DNA from: Naegleria gruberi
Taxonomy: Eukaryota
DNA: 7,808 nucleotides
Assembly (NCBI GenBank): GCA_000004985.1
Contig: GG739102.1
Strand: one strand, 5' to 3'
Made by a program: the position numbers and the translations under genes. Below, in pieces: positions 1-7,808 of the stretch. Within the stretch, counting starts at the first letter, position 1; every line of letters starts with the position of its first letter. Below the pieces are notes generated by a model that saw only the letters and a program-made list of their open reading frames with translations, ran no database searches and had not been told where the DNA came from.

Positions 1-2
1 AA

Positions 3-965
3 AAGTCAAAATCAAAGGATGAAGCTGGTGGTCCGAAACATGCCCAATTTTACTCGGCAGGAACTTATGAAGAGGAGGCAGAGAGTGCCGCTGTTCAAAC
101 ACCTGTAGCTGCCTCTTCCGAGACAACAGAGGCCACTCCTACATTGACTAAACAAGAAAAGGCACAAAAAAAGGCCACGAAGGAACATACACTTGGGTTG
201 ATTACTTTTAAAATTATTGAATTTTTGCAGGAAGACACTTCTAAAAAGTATACATTTCAACAAATTTTGGAAGCCATTGATCATAGCAGTTGTACCAATG
301 AAGTTGACGAGGAGGAGGAAAAGGAAAAAACTGGAGTTAAATTTGAGGATTCACTTGCTGCTCATCTTGACGATCGGATAAAGAAGGCCATCTATCTGAA
401 ATTAATGCAAAATCACAAGGTGGATTATCAAGGACCAACCACAAAGAATATCGATGAAAATGCTACCTTTTGCTTTAAGGCTATCCATCAGTCTATCAAG
501 GAAAAAAAACACGTTTTGGAATTATTGCAAAATCCAGAGTTTGTAATTAGTGGAATTCCTGTATCTGAATTGGCTGAAAGTTACAAGGGTGTATTAAATG
601 ATATTGAAGAGCTCAAGAAGGAAAAGGCTGTCATTTCCATACCCAACCAAGATAAGAAGTGTGACATTTTGTACTTTAATGATGTGAGTGTAGATATGCC
701 AATAGTTGATGTTAAACTGAGAGATTTGTGGAGGGGAACAAGAGAGAGACGTATTCCTGCATCAGATTTACCATCCCTCCTACAAAAAGTTGGTCTTCCC
801 GCTATACAAACTGTTGAATGGCCAGAAGATGAACACAGAAAGAAGAAGGAAGCTGAAAGAGAAGAAAATGCAAAGAATACCAAGACTAAACGTACTCGTA
901 AGATGAATGTCAAGAAGATGACCAATAAGCACTTGGCTGAAGAATTTGTTGCTCACCAAAAGTAA
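3..965 (+). CDS. TFA2: General transcription factor TFIIE beta subunit, the small subunit with a winged-helix domain. It is 5'-partial: the frame is open to the window start and it ends at TAA 963-965.
   Basis: Frame 3 has no stop from position 3. Track position 144 is a TTG codon, so it is not the real start. The translation aligns along its whole length with the human TFIIE-beta protein as I remember it. The winged helix GLITFKIIEFLQ...YTFQQILEAI matches human FGVLAKIVNYMK...LTLDEILDET. KKCDILYFNDVSVDMPIVDVKLRDLWRG matches [26 protein letters not shown]. The basic C-terminal tail ends KMTNKHLAEEFVAHQK, against human KTHNEHLAGVLKDY. The N-terminal part in the window is the S/T/A-rich low-complexity region typical of this factor. 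Confidence 0.75.
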   Translation, partial: KSKSKDEAGGPKHAQFYSAGTYEEEAESAAVQTPVAASSETTEATPTLTKQEKAQKKATKEHTLGLITFKIIEFLQEDTSKKYTFQQILEAIDHSSCTNEVDEEEEKEKTGVKFEDSLAAHLDDRIKKAIYLKLMQNHKVDYQGPTTKNIDENATFCFKAIHQSIKEKKHVLELLQNPEFVISGIPVSELAESYKGVLNDIEELKKEKAVISIPNQDKKCDILYFNDVSVDMPIVDVKLRDLWRGTRERRIPASDLPSLLQKVGLPAIQTVEWPEDEHRKKKEAEREENAKNTKTKRTRKMNVKKMTNKHLAEEFVAHQK

Positions 966-2913: not shown

Positions 2914-2930
2914 CTCAGAGATGAAATTAA

Positions 2931-2975
2931 GTTATTGATGTACATCAATCGATAATTATTTTCGAAATAATATTA
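2931..2975. repeat. Right copy of the same imperfect direct repeat. It reads GTTATTGATGTA, then about 18 nt, then TTCGAAATAATATTA.
   Basis: It holds GTTATTGATGTA at 2931-2942 and TTCGAAATAATATTA at 2961-2975. It is the partner of the 1041-1092 copy. Confidence 0.5.
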
Positions 2976-3059
2976 TTAAATTGTGAAATAAACAACCCAA
3001 ACCAACGTTCATTTGTTGATTGAAGCAAACGTGATCATCTTTTAAAAATACTTATTAAA

Positions 3060-3231
3060 TCAATCGAAGGCGTTGTTGTATTCTTCTTGCCAGCCATCAC
3101 GGAAGAGCAATCGTGTTTACAAAAAAACTTCCGATAGGAAATAAAACACAGTCAAATCGTTCCGAGACTAGCCATTCACAACAACAGCGAAAAAAAAAAT
3201 AACAAGAAACCCCTCGCTATACAACAATAAG
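3060..3231 (+). promoter_or_regulatory. Putative promoter and 5' UTR of the HSP90-like fragment.
   Basis: The leader on the coding strand is A/C-rich. It has a poly(A) tract at 3192-3201 and an A at -3 (aagATG). This is typical of a highly expressed yeast-type gene. I could not find a convincing canonical heat-shock element (nGAAnnTTCn arrays). Confidence 0.3.
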
Positions 3232-3636
3232 ATGTCTACCGAAACATTCAAGTTCCAAGCTGAGATTAATCAATTGATGAGTTTGATCATCAATACCTTC
3301 TACAGCAATAAGGAAATCTTCTTGAGAGAATTGATATCCAATGCTTCTGATGCTTTGGATAAGCTTCGTCACATCAGTTTGACTGAACCATCAGTCTTGG
3401 ACTCTGAAAGAGAGTTGTTCATCCACATTATTCCTGATAAGGTTAACAAGACATTGACCATTAGAGACTCGGGCCTGGGCATGACTAAGGCCGATTTAAT
3501 TAATTGTTTGATCCATAGTAATCACAATCACTGGGACCTTAATAAAATGCTCTTTGAAAAAATTTTAAAAAATATTTTCTCTCTTGCTCGACAACATGCA
3601 CCCCTTAATAAAATGGAATTTCTTCTTCAAAATTGA
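3232..3636 (+). pseudogene. HSP90: HSP90 (Hsp82/HtpG family) N-terminal fragment. Homologous residues 1-91 are encoded at 3232-3504. An unrelated 43-codon tail then runs to TGA at 3634-3636. This is a truncated or chimeric HSP90-derived ORF.
   Basis: The translation starts [47 protein letters not shown]...[18 protein letters not shown]. This is the HSP90 ATP-binding N-domain up to the G1 box. The expected continuation NLGTIAKSGT...GQFGVGFYS (ATP lid and G2 box) is absent in all frames downstream. The tail [43 protein letters not shown] is instead low-complexity. Near-invariant positions are substituted: DKIRY is DKLRH here and DSGIGM is DSGLGM. Confidence 0.7.
3537..3615 (+). repeat. Exact 13-bp direct repeat CCTTAATAAAATG at 3537-3549 and 3603-3615. 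It sits inside the non-HSP90 tail just past the homology breakpoint.
   Basis: The exact 13-mer was seen twice, 66 bp apart. Confidence 0.4.
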
Positions 3637-3905
3637 AAAATATCTTTTTACTCTCGTAAACTGATAGTATCAAGTTTGAATCATCACACTAGCCTCTGTT
3701 CTTTCACCAAACAATCCGATCGTGGCAATTAGCTTCCATGTGATGACAAATGCTATTGTTGTGATTTTGATTCCTTACATTCTCCACAATGATGGAAGTA
3801 AATTGGTTTTTTGATGGTAATGATGATGATCATTTGTTACTCCACTGAAATTACATGACCGATTTATTTTTACTCATCCATAAACAATCAAGCGAAAAAG
3901 CGATT

Positions 3906-4171
3906 TTGCAACACAATGTGAAACAAGCCTAAATTCCTTCCTTATTCGAAATTAACTCAAAAAAAAAACGCTGCATTTATTGACTCACATAGTTGACAAA
4001 TCAATATTTGCAACACTTGGCAACAAGCCTTTGGTATACAATTCATCACAAGACTTTCATCATCATCACAACAAGACTTTCATCACAACCCTGGTTCACA
4101 TCTAACTGACATAACTAATTTTCAATCTTTCATCAAAATTCAAATTATCTAAAAACAAGCCTTTTTGCAAC
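3906..4171 (+). repeat. Dispersed short motif family. AACAAGCCT occurs three times (3922-3930, 4022-4030, 4154-4162). TTGCAACAC occurs twice (3906-3914, 4008-4016), with TTGCAAC at 4165-4171. The first two instances form a composite unit of 23-25 bp, TTGCAACAC-N5-7-AACAAGCCT.
   Basis: The exact 9-mers were seen at the listed coordinates. The spacing between instances is about 100 and 132 bp. Confidence 0.45.
4044..4084 (+). repeat. Imperfect tandem duplication. The sequence is CATCACAAGACTTTCATCA followed by CATCACAACAAGACTTTCATCA.
   Basis: Read directly from the sequence: two adjacent units of 19 and 22 bp sharing CAAGACTTTCATCA. Confidence 0.6.
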
Positions 4172-4290
4172 TTCACATCTACCAGATACAAAACCATAAG
4201 AAACAACCCTATTCAAATCCATTCAAGTCTCGCAGCAACAACAACACTCATCATTCATTCACTAATTAAATCCTTCGTCATACCATCACA

Positions 4291-7200
4291 ATGTTATCAG
4301 CATCAGCAGAAAATAATCTGCAAGACATGTTTGCTCAATTCCTCAAAGGTCAAAGGGTTGACACTGGAATGGAAGAAGAAAACAAAAAGTTGAAGAAACA
4401 AGTTAATTTTCTCCAAAATCTTGCCTGGGAAAAAGAGCAAGAACTTGAAGAAAGGGATAACGCATTCTATGCAATGGCTGCAAGGGTTGATGGAGGTGTG
4501 CTAGCAAAATATTATACAAAAATAGTTAAAAGTGATAGATCCTATAGAATGCAAATCAATACCATCAAACAACAACTCAAAGAGTGTGATCCAGATGATA
4601 CATTAATTATGAATTCCTTAAAGAAGAAGATTGAGACATTAAACAAGGAACAAGAAGAAGATAAATCCCAATATTTCCTTGAGTATGAGAATGCAATGAA
4701 GATTACTGATGCTGAATTACATGCCATTTACCAAAAACACAATGCAGAGATGTTGGAACAGAAAAAGTTGATTGACTATCTTTATGCAAAGAGCAACGAA
4801 TACGAGTTGACTGGAAAGAAACTTAATGATGGACTGATGGGGAAGGCGTTAGAAATTGAAATACTCAAGAAAAGAGTACAAGAGACTGAGAATCGTTTAA
4901 GAGATGAAGAAAATAGATTTTTAACAGCACAAAATCAGACAATGAATGAATTTGATCTCCGAAACAAATCATTAATTTCAGAAATGAATACTAATCATCA
5001 ATCATTAATATTAGAATTGGACACAAAGCATCAAATGTTAGTATCAGAAATGAATCAAAGATACATGACAAAATTGTCTGAGTTGGAAGAAGAAAACAAG
5101 CAATTAAGGGTCGATACATCAAATTTTTTGCTAGAGTTACAACATTCAAAGTTAAGAATTGATCAATTGGAACTTGAAGTTAAGGAAGCAAAATTAACAC
5201 AGCTAACACTTGGACAGGCAGCTATTAATCAAACTCCTACTACATATTCCAGAACTGAGGCCATGAAAGATTTCAATATCGGTGCATTTTCTGGTGATGC
5301 CATGAGTATTCTCCTTAGACCTCAACAAAGACAAACAATTAGAGAATTTCAGTTCAATCCAGAACAAGACAATGTTACAACATTCCAAGGATATATAGAA
5401 GCTTCAAGAAAAGTGGGTAAAAGAACCTTTGAGAAAAACACTTTAAACAATCATAGGTGTGCAGTAAGGAGTTACTTGAAATTTATTTCAATGTCTCCAG
5501 AGGAAATAGAAGTTATTCCACCAAATAATGATGCCATCAATGCTTGGTTGTGTTTCTTAGCAAGAGAATCAAAGGCCTTCAACACTATTTTGAATTATGG
5601 AAGAGGATTATTAAGCCATATCAGAGAAGAAACAGGTGCCAAGAACAATGCCTCAATAGACCAACTAGACTATAGAAGATTTTCTTCCACTTTGAGTAAC
5701 ATTCTCAAATCATTTGGAAATGAAGAAGAAAAGGCATTAGTATACGATGATGTGGAATACTTTAATGTAATGAAGAAGAGTTATTCATCAACAAGAAGAA
5801 CTATTCTTAGAGATAGAGCCATGTTTGCCTGTCAGAGTGCAATTGGTCAAAGACCAGACTCTATTTCATTCATGAAATTGCGTGATGTTGAGATTTTTAT
5901 CACAGTTGACAAGAGGGTCAAAATTATTTACTCAACCAGGAAAATGAAGACAATTTTGAAAAAACCTCACAAACAGCCAATCACTTCTCAACATAATGGT
6001 GATAGAGAGGTTTGTCCAAATCATGTTTTATTGAACTATCTTATCGCAAGAGGTGCTTTGGCTTCATATGACATCAATACTCCGTTGAACAAAGTTTTGG
6101 AAACTCCTGGTCAAGTATTGATAAAAACAGATATGCAAGACAAGTATTTATTTCCTTGCATGAAAGTAGATGGAACTTTTAGAGATAACAATCGTTTAAG
6201 GACTTTGTATTTCACAAGAATATATCGTCAGCTTTTTTCATTAGCTGGCTACAACAAAAAGGTCAGTGGATATTCCCCTAGAAGATCCTGCGTTACTAGA
6301 ATGATTGAACACTTTATGGACAAAAACACTTACAATGCTGGTGCAGAAGTGGTTGTTAAATGGATTGGTTGGGAAGCTGACTCTAAGGTTTTTAGAGAAT
6401 ATGTTGATGATGTTGTCAAGAACCACCTCAAAATTGGTGACATTTTTGGTTTGAATGAAAATGAACAAGACGGTGAAGAAGATGAGCAAGAGGAAGATGT
6501 TGATGAACAAGATCTAGAAGTAGAGGATGAGGAAGATGACCAATTAAATGAAGATGATGATGATTATCAACAGTCATCAGAATGCATTTTAAATGATGAT
6601 GAAATTGAACTTGAATTCATTCTCAAGATTAATGATGATCAACAATCACCAAGAAGTGTAGAGCTTAATATTGAAACAAGACCAGGATTAGACCCTCAAA
6701 TATCAGCCTACATTGAAGACAAATGTAGAACACTTTATGAATTTCCAAATGATCTCATTATCAAATTTCATTCTAAAATGAGAATTCGTTTTGTGAATTT
6801 TTTATTTTTTGCTCACTTTGAATTAATGCTTCAATTCAAAGACACTTGTAACAATAGAAGATTGAATCAAGAGCAGAGAACCAATCTTAAAATGTCAATT
6901 ATTAATGAAAGATTGAAGAATGATAATTTTAGAAAATCACTTGAAGAAGATGTTGAAAAATTTTTCACTAGAATTATGCCAAGTAATAATCCTTCTAAAG
7001 ATTCTAAATTTGATATCTATTTCAAAGGTATTGATATTCCTATTCGTTATCATGACAAAGCTATTGAGATATATGATTCTGCTGATAATGATATGAACGA
7101 TGAATCAGATCAAGATGAGGTGATGATTACATCTGGTGCAGATGAAGATGAGCAAGAAGAGGCCAACTCAAACTCATCAATCATTACATGGACAGCACTT

Positions 7201-7808
7201 TCTAGAGGAAAGACTTTTCCAAAGATTAGATATATTGCAAAGACGTTAATTTTGAGGGATTCTAAACTCAAAGATAGACTTAATGTCATTCTTCCCAAAA
7301 ACAAAACGAAATATATTGTTTCTAAAGCTTACATCATTCTTTTATTGAAGGAATTACGAGTGAAAGGACTGACAATATTACATGATTTGTTACCACATAT
7401 GAAAAGGCTCAAATCTTGGCAAAATTCTTATACAATCCCAACAAATTTTACTTCTGGAAAAGCTTTTAACAATTACTTATTAATTGAAGGTTATGGTGAA
7501 AAGTTTATTCATAAGAGTGAAAAAGTTAAAGAAAGATTTATGGAATTATTTGTTGGCAAAGATGGTAAATGCAGGGTAGTAGAATATGATGTGAACACTT
7601 TAGAAATAATTCAAGATTCTAAATATCAAAACTCCTTCAGGAAAGCATGTGATTTAACTAAATGTAATTCAAGAAGTGAATCCTATCATTTTCGTTCAGA
7701 TTCAGTTAGGGCACATTTAGAATCTTTAGATGGTATTTCCACAATTTTCAAGAAGGGTAATTATATTTCAACTGCCAATGTTTATGAAAATGAAATGTCA
7801 ATCAAACT
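4291..7808 (+). CDS. Large ORF, 3'-open, of at least 1172 aa. It encodes an N-terminal coiled coil, a central tyrosine-recombinase domain (phage-integrase, Cre/Flp, Crypton-like), an acidic linker, and an unassigned C-terminal region. It is probably the transposase of a Crypton-like mobile element or a gene domesticated from one.
   Basis: The ATG is at 4291. An in-frame TAA lies at 4267 and no earlier ATG follows it. I checked codon by codon that there is no stop through 7808, giving 1172 codons plus 2 nt. It is missing from the ORF track only because it has no stop in the window. Box I is GQRPDSISFMKLRDVEI, with R521 at nt 5851, and it mirrors lambda Int GQRVGDLCEMKWSDI. The lysine region is TRKMKT (K551/K553). 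YSPRRSCVTR (Y661, R664) sits at the HxxR position, compared with Cre HSARVGAARD. WIGWEADSKVFREY (W694, Y704) matches Cre GGWTNVNIVMNYI with the catalytic Tyr 10 residues after the Trp. An upstream region resembles a core-binding domain (RCAVRSYLKFI...AINAWLCFLARESKAFNTILNYGRGLL). The codon usage is coherent, and the antisense ORFs over it are short. Confidence 0.85.
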   Translation, partial: MLSASAENNLQDMFAQFLKGQRVDTGMEEENKKLKKQVNFLQNLAWEKEQELEERDNAFYAMAARVDGGVLAKYYTKIVKSDRSYRMQINTIKQQLKECDPDDTLIMNSLKKKIETLNKEQEEDKSQYFLEYENAMKITDAELHAIYQKHNAEMLEQKKLIDYLYAKSNEYELTGKKLNDGLMGKALEIEILKKRVQETENRLRDEENRFLTAQNQTMNEFDLRNKSLISEMNTNHQSLILELDTKHQMLVSEMNQRYMTKLSELEEENKQLRVDTSNFLLELQHSKLRIDQLELEVKEAKLTQLTLGQAAINQTPTTYSRTEAMKDFNIGAFSGDAMSILLRPQQRQTIREFQFNPEQDNVTTFQGYIEASRKVGKRTFEKNTLNNHRCAVRSYLKFISMSPEEIEVIPPNNDAINAWLCFLARESKAFNTILNYGRGLLSHIREETGAKNNASIDQLDYRRFSSTLSNILKSFGNEEEKALVYDDVEYFNVMKKSYSSTRRTILRDRAMFACQSAIGQRPDSISFMKLRDVEIFITVDKRVKIIYSTRKMKTILKKPHKQPITSQHNGDREVCPNHVLLNYLIARGALASYDINTPLNKVLETPGQVLIKTDMQDKYLFPCMKVDGTFRDNNRLRTLYFTRIYRQLFSLAGYNKKVSGYSPRRSCVTRMIEHFMDKNTYNAGAEVVVKWIGWEADSKVFREYVDDVVKNHLKIGDIFGLNENEQDGEEDEQEEDVDEQDLEVEDEEDDQLNEDDDDYQQSSECILNDDEIELEFILKINDDQQSPRSVELNIETRPGLDPQISAYIEDKCRTLYEFPNDLIIKFHSKMRIRFVNFLFFAHFELMLQFKDTCNNRRLNQEQRTNLKMSIINERLKNDNFRKSLEEDVEKFFTRIMPSNNPSKDSKFDIYFKGIDIPIRYHDKAIEIYDSADNDMNDESDQDEVMITSGADEDEQEEANSNSSIITWTALSRGKTFPKIRYIAKTLILRDSKLKDRLNVILPKNKTKYIVSKAYIILLLKELRVKGLTILHDLLPHMKRLKSWQNSYTIPTNFTSGKAFNNYLLIEGYGEKFIHKSEKVKERFMELFVGKDGKCRVVEYDVNTLEIIQDSKYQNSFRKACDLTKCNSRSESYHFRSDSVRAHLESLDGISTIFKKGNYISTANVYENEMSIK
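4363..5280 (+). other. N-terminal coiled-coil region of the large ORF, roughly residues 25-330.
   Basis: It is K/E/Q/L-rich and heptad-like, for example NKKLKKQVNFLQNLAWEKEQELEERD, LEIEILKKRVQETENRLRDEENRF and LSELEEENKQLRVDTSNFLLELQHSKLRIDQLELEVKEAKL. It has no Pro or Gly. The 12-mer TCAGAAATGAAT is duplicated internally, encoding SEMN at 4978 and 5047. Confidence 0.5.
5440..6420 (+). other. Tyrosine-recombinase domain (core-binding-like plus catalytic) within the large ORF. It spans roughly residues 385-710.
   Basis: See the motif list in the CDS entry. The residues R521, K551/553, Y661, R664, W694 and Y704 appear in canonical order and spacing. Confidence 0.7.
6454..6573 (+). other. Acidic low-complexity linker NENEQDGEEDEQEEDVDEQDLEVEDEEDDQLNEDDDDYQQ. 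A second D/E-rich patch lies at about 7072-7165.
   Basis: GAA/GAT/GAG-rich codon runs are seen directly. Confidence 0.6.

Follow-up and report, generated by a model that had tools for sequence, protein, structure and literature searches.

An HSP90 exon 1 fragment adjoining a near-orphan tyrosine recombinase gene in Naegleria gruberi

Introduction

Crypton DNA transposons, reportedly described by Goodwin et al. in 2003, are eukaryotic elements in which a tyrosine recombinase is the only recognisable enzyme. The same can be said of a unit that we consider here, located in a 7,808-nt stretch of contig GG739102.1 of Naegleria gruberi (assembly GCA_000004985.1; hereafter the window, meaning the whole stretch that was analysed). 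In this window, the 5′ fragment of an HSP90 gene lies on the 5′ side of an open reading frame (ORF) that is predicted to encode a tyrosine recombinase with CP...YL and GRW-like motifs. We tentatively propose, at slightly less than even confidence, that recombinase-carrying DNA recently disrupted an HSP90 paralogue by integrating at or next to the donor site of its first intron.

Cryptons have been proposed to move via a circular intermediate (Kojima & Jurka 2011, PMC3212892). As in the window unit, no terminal inverted repeats lie near the gene, and boundaries are invisible in a single copy. Crypton termini carry short direct repeats of 4–6 bp, with neither terminal inverted repeats nor long terminal repeats, and the window includes one possible end only. 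The catalytic tetrad of Cryptons is R-H-R-Y, whereas that of the window ORF is R-Y-R-Y. Unlike Crypton proteins, the window protein spans at least 1172 amino acids (aa), with an N-terminal extension of ~310 aa and a C-terminal region of more than 430 aa, and a domain scan found no GCR1_C, DUF3504 or peptidase domain in the 1172 residues before the window ends and the ORF continues.

DIRS-like elements provide the closest recombinase profile, weakly so (11.2 bits against at most 4.7 for shuffled sequences). According to later papers that cite the original work, the terminal repeats of DIRS-1 contain heat-shock promoters (Zuker et al. 1984, cited in PMC2685390 and PMC2175303). Unlike DIRS elements, the window shows no terminal repeats, and the same domain scan found no reverse transcriptase, RNase H or methyltransferase. 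Further, the heat-shock promoter of DIRS-1 is part of its terminal repeat, whereas the window holds a piece of host HSP90 that includes a coding exon and lacks a canonical heat-shock element.

Two other systems invite comparison. An intron of ATF7IP contains a Crypton-derived recombinase whose splicing to host exons is predicted, though unproven (Kojima & Jurka 2011, PMC3212892). There, as in the window, the recombinase is encoded within the 5′ portion of a host gene or beyond it, and both read in one direction; however, the ATF7IP case is conserved across vertebrates, whereas the window is one observed locus whose host gene is apparently broken. Starships are giant cargo elements of Pezizomycotina with a captain gene at their 5′ end (PMC10104507). 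The window ORF matches the captain domain, DUF3435, only below the Pfam gathering score, and its host seems to be a divergent protist instead of an ascomycete.

An HSP90 first exon that stops at its boundary

The HSP90 fragment and the recombinase ORF lie on one uninterrupted piece of sequence, arranged as follows.

2914–7808: single continuous contig, with the HSP90 5′ fragment, then a 780-bp spacer, then the recombinase ORF
3221–3510, plus strand: HSP90 first exon, consisting of an 11-nt leader and codons 1–93, with ATG at 3232 and the frame intact
3511–3636, plus strand: read-through tail of ORF 3232–3636 (134 aa), 41 codons unrelated to HSP90, ending in TGA at 3634–3636
3511–4290, plus strand: non-coding spacer of 780 bp, A/C-rich and G-poor on this strand, with many short direct repeats and no ORF of at least 50 aa
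4291–7808, plus strand: recombinase ORF of at least 1172 codons, still open at the window end; predicted tyrosine recombinase with long N- and C-terminal extensions

HSP90 residues 1–93, encoded at 3232–3510, match HSP90 N-domains in the PDB (E ~4e-40) and are recognisably sequence of the HSP90 N-terminal GHKL ATPase domain. A complete cytosolic HSP90 gene is not present: the rest of the N-domain and the middle and C-terminal domains are missing from 3511–7808, and the frame is closed at 3636. Searching the window by tblastn with a 273-residue HSP90 revealed no further HSP90 sequence up to 7808, and the exon 2 sequence (GTACTATTGCTAGATCTGG) is absent from the 4.3 kb 3′ of the break. An initial annotation of this DNA had likewise called everything past the break unrelated to HSP90. 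The adjacency that it described is also real, resting on the N-domain match on one side and a tyrosine recombinase profile on the other, and the coordinates confirm that the HSP90 ATG (3232) and the recombinase ATG (4291) share one genomic frame and the same orientation.

The break can be placed exactly by comparison with an intact relative. A protein match to the 134-residue ORF (P0001, E 1e-52) led to L001, a 1048-bp ENA metagenome contig that carries an intact HSP90 5′ region: exon 1 at 128–407, a 102-nt intron at 408–509 (GTAATT...TTACAG), and then exon 2 (...LG/TIARSGTK...). Window positions 3221–3510 align to L001 119–406 with 97.6% nucleotide identity and 98.9% amino-acid identity, the one difference being S2A. 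Similarity stops at window position 3510, a single nucleotide short of the end of L001 exon 1. The initial annotation had put an abrupt break at about 3505, 786 bp upstream of the recombinase ATG; the abruptness stands, while the alignment to L001 moves the break to between 3510 and 3511, 780 bp 5′ of the ATG at 4291. At the junction, L001 reads TTGG/GTAATT and the window reads TTG-ATCCATA-GTAATC, such that the canonical G/GT is lost in the window.

This coincidence with an exon boundary changes what the break can tell us. It had been read as the left terminus of an inserted element; yet it falls 1 nt before the exon 1/intron 1 junction of a near-identical intact HSP90 gene, and therefore no transposon terminus is located by the break alone. 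On the 5′ side, similarity to L001 is likewise lost ~11 nt upstream of the ATG. The window and L001 copies are thus alike in coding sequence only, as would be expected if they were paralogues or came from close species in which strong constraint or gene conversion acts. Since the flanks diverge on both sides of the exon, non-coding flanks are simply not conserved between the two copies. Further, because its promoter has diverged from that of L001, the window HSP90 is a separate gene copy and no recent (segmental) duplicate of the L001 gene.

Two attempts to find traces of the intron beyond the break failed. Neither 3511–3700 nor 3511–4290 aligns to the L001 intron better than shuffled sequences do, which rejects the post-break sequence as a diverged HSP90 intron. 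A TTAAYAAAWT motif at similar offsets in the post-break sequence and the L001 intron is not significant (p ~0.16).

Several features of the two HSP90 copies can be noted in passing. Window 3232–3510 and L001 128–407 have in common lineage-specific changes at usually invariant positions (NNLG to NCLG, and GIGMT to GLGMT). The L001 intron (408–509) is an internal tandem duplication with a unit of ~52 nt (TTTTACATTATTTCTTGAWWTYTTAACAAATTATTATTA). The protein P0001 was produced by a gene caller that read through this intron and took a TGA as a sense codon.

A near-orphan tyrosine recombinase

The ORF that begins at 4291 is, judging from profile matches and residue alignment, predicted to encode a tyrosine recombinase with the catalytic residues R-K-Y-R-W-Y. 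Its parts are as follows, all on the plus strand.

4291–5220: N-terminal region of ~310 aa, Pro/Gly-poor and charged; probably coiled coil, from composition only
4967–5060: 33-nt tandem repeat, 2.9 copies, giving the 11-aa protein repeat SLISEMNTNHQ / SLILELDTKHQ / MLVSEMNQRY
5263–5640: core-binding, SAM-like N-terminal part; the sole stretch with a detectable relative (P0121)
5839–6411: catalytic domain, from profile alignment and coordinates
5851–5853: R521
5947–5949: K553
6013–6018: CP motif
6271–6282: Y661-S-P-R664 (GYSPRR), where H-x-x-R is expected
6370–6372 and 6400–6402: W694 and Y704, assigned by eye from the motif KWIGW...FREYV
6452–6560: acidic low-complexity linker (40% D+E in aa 736–800)
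6640–7808: C-terminal region of at least 389 aa, with no relative or domain detected

Individual matches fall mostly below their thresholds. Phage_int_SAM_1 (Pfam; nt 5383–5484, E 0.012, sub-threshold) lies upstream of Phage_integrase (Pfam; nt 6121–6408, 23.9 bits against a cutoff of 27.1), and DUF3435 covers the catalytic domain at 16.1–17.7 bits against a Pfam cutoff of 25.8 (E 0.002–0.006). The PHROGs integrase family phrog_216 matches at E 4e-5. We also made profiles from the eukaryotic and prokaryotic tyrosine recombinases of Additional file 4 of PMC3212892, and with the combined profile the window domain reaches 34.4 bits, while none of 200 shuffles exceeds 6.9. The identification thus follows from concordant sub-threshold Pfam and PHROGs matches in the right domain order, together with the 34.4-bit match, which aligns the R, the K and the x-x-R. 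A Tyr at the box II His position is also found in telomere resolvases such as ResT. Single-sequence AlphaFold models are of low confidence for both the recombinase region (pLDDT 31) and the C-terminal region (pLDDT 34.5).

Affiliation within the tyrosine recombinases is less clear. DIRS-type gives the best group score, a weak one (11.2 bits, best shuffle 4.7), followed by CryptonA (4.7 bits, best shuffle 3.3), prokaryotic recombinases (2.6, best shuffle 5.9), CryptonS (2.0, best shuffle 3.6), CryptonF (0.1, best shuffle 3.8) and CryptonI (-0.4, best shuffle 7.3), the Crypton group profiles being small and taken from optical character recognition text. The initial annotation had called the recombinase Crypton-like. 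A tyrosine recombinase it does appear to be; however, CryptonF, I and S are at noise, CryptonA is barely above it and DIRS-type scores best, such that membership of any of the four Crypton groups is not demonstrable from these profile scores.

The family is rare, and the window recombinase is nearly an orphan. An exhaustive HMMER search of 1.84 billion representative proteins returned a sole match to residues 331–1172, P0121 (E 1e-26), which is 41% identical over ORF aa 243–451 (BLASTP) and 51% identical over aa 332–449. P0121 lacks the first ~220 aa of the N-terminal region of the window ORF, and because its N-terminus aligns at ORF aa 243, it gives no clue to the true start of the window ORF. 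Across protein, metagenome, genome and viral contig collections, which do not include the source genome, the only relatives found were P0001 on L001 and P0121 on the two contigs described next.

P0121 is encoded on L002, a JGI metagenome contig (3300002220), and on the identical L003 (ENA ERZ27315067), both at 39% GC. No HSP90 lies upstream of its gene on either contig. At L002 2167–2506 there is instead a decayed 3′ recombinase fragment (...MFREYVDEVVKDKL...stop) that holds the catalytic-Tyr motif MFREYVDEVVKD; 78 nt separate its end from the ATG of the next copy, which follows head to tail. This second copy has two compensating frameshifts around a 75-nt segment (3130–3245), which are the same in both independent assemblies. 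Decayed head-to-tail copies fit elements that integrate via circular intermediates and speak against a conserved host gene. Mobility of the recombinase family may in this way gain indirect support, from the contig of another organism.

Two further observations concern these contigs. In the L002 fragment, the protein seemingly ends ~30 residues past the catalytic Tyr, lacking the C-terminal extension that adds more than 430 residues in the window. L002 and L003 also stop at one and the same base, which suggests a repeat boundary.

The spacer between the two genes

Direct repeats are a conspicuous property of the 780-bp spacer, in which 17 repeated 10-mers occur against 1.9 expected (none of 500 shuffles had more). 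The most distinctive are the following, all on the plus strand.

3537–3549 and 3603–3615: 13-mer CCTTAATAAAATG, two copies 66 nt apart (0.03 expected; no shuffle with two copies)
3922, 4022 and 4154: AACAAGCCT, three copies (0.04 expected)
3905–3930, 4007–4030 and, in permuted order, 4154–4171: composite motif TTTGCAAC(AC) / AACAAGCCT
4048 and 4071: ACAAGACTTTCATCA, two copies
4095 and 4172: TTCACATCTA, two copies

The 13-mer, which the initial annotation had pointed out at 3537 and 3603 as a possible subterminal repeat, is thus present beyond chance. Of the shorter motifs that it had proposed for the same role, the three copies of AACAAGCCT also exceed chance, whereas TTGCAACAC, which occurs twice, does not by itself. 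The cis-acting regions of mobile elements are often rich in direct repeats. The recombinase unit may plausibly have its 5′ non-coding region here, the spacer serving as promoter, subterminal region or both.

Searches for more specific signals in the spacer gave little. For a recombinase core site (inverted repeats of 11–13 bp around a 6–8-bp spacer), only one imperfect pair was found, with a 17-nt spacer, at 3972–4012. No tRNA gene that could serve as an integration target was found in the spacer, and a scan for bacterial promoters and terminators, which are irrelevant to a eukaryote, returned nothing above chance. A conserved non-coding block upstream of the recombinase ATG in the window and L002 (CACTAAT...CATACCA) was considered and rejected, as its alignment is no better than that of shuffles.

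Base composition is skewed around this region. GC skew falls to -0.55 at 3814–4413 (C over G), upstream of the recombinase ATG, and is positive inside the ORF. Both HSP90 ATGs (window and L001) likewise follow A/C-rich, G-poor leaders, as does the recombinase ATG of L002. On the plus strand, 3733–3799 and 3811–3891 give many weak matches to C/D-box small nucleolar RNAs, the best being SNORD11B at 24.7 bits against a cutoff of 50. These stretches have C-box-like GTGATGA and ATGATGA and a 7-bp terminal stem (CTTCCAT/ATGGAAG; 3733–3739, 3792–3798); they lack a terminal D box, and they fold no better than shuffles.

How the locus may have arisen

We infer that DNA carrying the recombinase, probably a mobile element with a circular intermediate, integrated at or beside the intron-1 donor of an HSP90 paralogue, and that the event ran in this direction and happened recently. 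Integration would have inactivated the HSP90 copy, leaving a stub of promoter and exon 1 that ends after 41 unrelated codons. Where the ~100-nt intron and exon 2 are expected, there are now at least 4.3 kb of unrelated DNA, comprising the 780-bp spacer and the recombinase gene. The undecayed state of HSP90 exon 1, with one amino-acid change relative to L001 and an open frame, together with the intact 1172-codon ORF, fits a recent event. Plausibly, the spacer would contain a promoter belonging to the unit and perhaps sites bound by the recombinase. This A/C-rich upstream region probably drives the recombinase gene, whose place behind an HSP90 promoter is incidental. The left end of the element would lie somewhere between 3511 and ~3900, a position that one copy cannot fix.

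Several considerations weigh against this history. Random insertion within 1 nt of an exon end is a priori unlikely; the converse view, that GTAAT at 3518 is a retained donor, with 6 nt inserted and one G changed to A, is about as unparsimonious. The case for mobility and insertion is made from a single sequence, with no second copy found in the collections searched and the right end outside the window. The direct repeats of the spacer could equally be promoter elements. Catalytic competence is uncertain because the box II His is replaced by Tyr661. Finally, the linkage of promoter to junction rests on the assembly, because the contig begins 318 bp 5′ of the HSP90 ATG beside a gap.

The alternative that best withstands the evidence, itself unlikely, is a rearrangement without mobility. 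The recombinase gene would here be a resident, possibly domesticated, single-copy gene, and the HSP90 stub a remnant of partial duplication or deletion that ends at an exon boundary by chance. Multiple copies were not found in the collections searched, from which the source genome is absent, and the long non-catalytic extensions are odd for a minimal transposon. The change of the box II His to Tyr can occur in domesticated recombinases, and a diverged promoter beside a near-identical exon fits an old paralogue fragment under gene conversion. On the other hand, the catalytic R, K, R, W and Y are all kept, and the sole relative consists of two decayed, frameshifted fragments arranged head to tail, as in dead mobile elements.

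A second alternative, that the recombinase captured an HSP90 promoter and exon 1, turns on splice and heat-shock signals in the following regions, all on the plus strand.

2914–3231: HSP90 5′ flank (promoter region), 318 bp between the gap and the ATG
3097–3133: block common with L001 20–55 (TCACGGAAG...TTTACAA...CTTCCG, 76% identity)
3518–3523: donor-like GTAATC, phase 1 as in the real L001 donor GTAATT; donor use would be hypothetical
4260–4300: CACTAAT at 4260–4266 and the first AG (4299–4300) after an in-frame stop at 4267–4269; hypothetical branch site and acceptor

Splicing from 3517/3518 to an AG at 4299–4309 would yield an in-frame fusion of HSP90 residues 1–95 to the recombinase, possibly stress-inducible. 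The initial annotation had recognised GTTTGA at 3506 as the sole donor at the breakpoint, and a poor one; GTAATC at 3518 is a further candidate, likewise of phase 1 and similar to the GTAATT of L001. CACTAAT and the acceptor CAG (4298–4300) are both where that annotation had put them. The AGs at 4299, 4305, 4308 and 4323 are all in frame with a phase-1 donor, and the recombinase frame is closed just 7 codons upstream of its first ATG. With a better donor and all nearby AGs in frame, the splice-fusion idea becomes slightly more plausible than it first appeared, as far as these motifs can indicate. There are also precedents, in the heat-shock control of DIRS-1 as later papers report it (Zuker et al. 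1984 in PMC2685390, PMC2175303) and in the ATF7IP recombinase with its predicted splice to host exons (PMC3212892).

Nevertheless, we regard such a capture as improbable. The intron would be 783 nt long, compared with 102 nt for the only known intron of the lineage, and it is hard to see what 95 residues of the HSP90 ATPase domain would do. The leader before 4291 is A/C-rich like those of HSP90, which suggests an independent 5′ untranslated region, and the relative on L002 has no HSP90 upstream. The heat-shock promoter that had been proposed is likewise only partly borne out. The region is the 5′ flank of a heat-shock gene; however, no canonical heat-shock element trimer (an array of at least three alternating nGAAn units) occurs in the available 318 bp 5′ of the ATG (2914–3231), even with up to one mismatch allowed. 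Of the four TTCCG/CGGAA sites in the window, three fall within 3100–3164, and a CGGAAG...CTTCCG block of the flank is common to L001. This 37-nt block, at 76% identity, is the only one that the 5′ flanks of the two genes have in common, and 7 of 500 shuffles reach its score (p ~0.014).

An assembly artefact, which we consider scarcely probable, would have misjoined HSP90 paralogues across their 290-bp near-exact exon 1 repeat, or would reflect chimeric reads at the junction. The parts of the window that bear on this are:

1–965, plus strand: 3′ part of a TFIIE-beta-like gene (Pfam TFA2_Winged_2, E 1e-15)
1246–2913: assembly gap of 1668 N, with ambiguous bases (ccaanccnn) just before it

This is a draft eukaryotic scaffold, AT-rich and intron-poor, with GC content of ~33% across the window. 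The gap ends only 318 bp 5′ of the HSP90 ATG, where the contig starts; the sequence 5′ of that start is probably repetitive or difficult to assemble. Exon 1 also exists in at least two near-identical versions. However, the junction lies ~600 bp from the gap within continuous sequence, there is no shared repeat at 3511, and a collapse over exon 1 would still require a real junction of exon 1 with 3511 somewhere in the genome. The TFIIE-beta-like gene at the far side of the gap has no introns over 963 nt, and it is so divergent that it matched no solved TFIIE-beta in the PDB at E ≤0.01, which points to a divergent protist as host rather than a fungus or animal.

We give very little credence to the view that the HSP90 copy still works, through an enlarged first intron from 3518 with the recombinase unit nested in it and exon 2 past 7808, or as a split gene completed by trans-splicing like the HSP90 of Giardia: exon 1 is undecayed and the donor-like GTAATC is in the right phase, but the canonical G/GT at the exon end is lost, there is no exon 2 within 4.3 kb, and functional HSP90 is unlikely because the GTAATC donor would insert Ile-His and turn the universally conserved Gly of LGTIA into Ser (LIHSTIA).

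What the locus may mean

Taken by itself, such a juxtaposition is ordinary: a gene copy broken by mobile or rearranged DNA. The locus also illustrates that where homology to a conserved gene breaks off, the cause may be no more than an exon boundary; unless a second copy is at hand, such a break should not be taken for a transposon terminus. True splicing of the HSP90 exon to the recombinase would make this a natural case of recombinase expression coupled to stress, as is known from DIRS-1. It is a long shot, less credible to us than any of the readings above, that the window represents an undescribed eukaryotic family (with R-K-Y-R-W-Y residues, a giant protein whose N-terminus is a coiled coil, and head-to-tail integration) of which this copy, through a stress-inducible HSP90N-recombinase fusion from 3517 to ~4301, would couple its mobilisation to heat shock.

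The recombinase is of note in its own right: this near-orphan fits none of the four Crypton groups, its active site is unusual at one residue, and its large extensions are unexplained. Were several copies to turn up in its host, it would represent a new lineage among the few eukaryotic elements that employ tyrosine recombinases.

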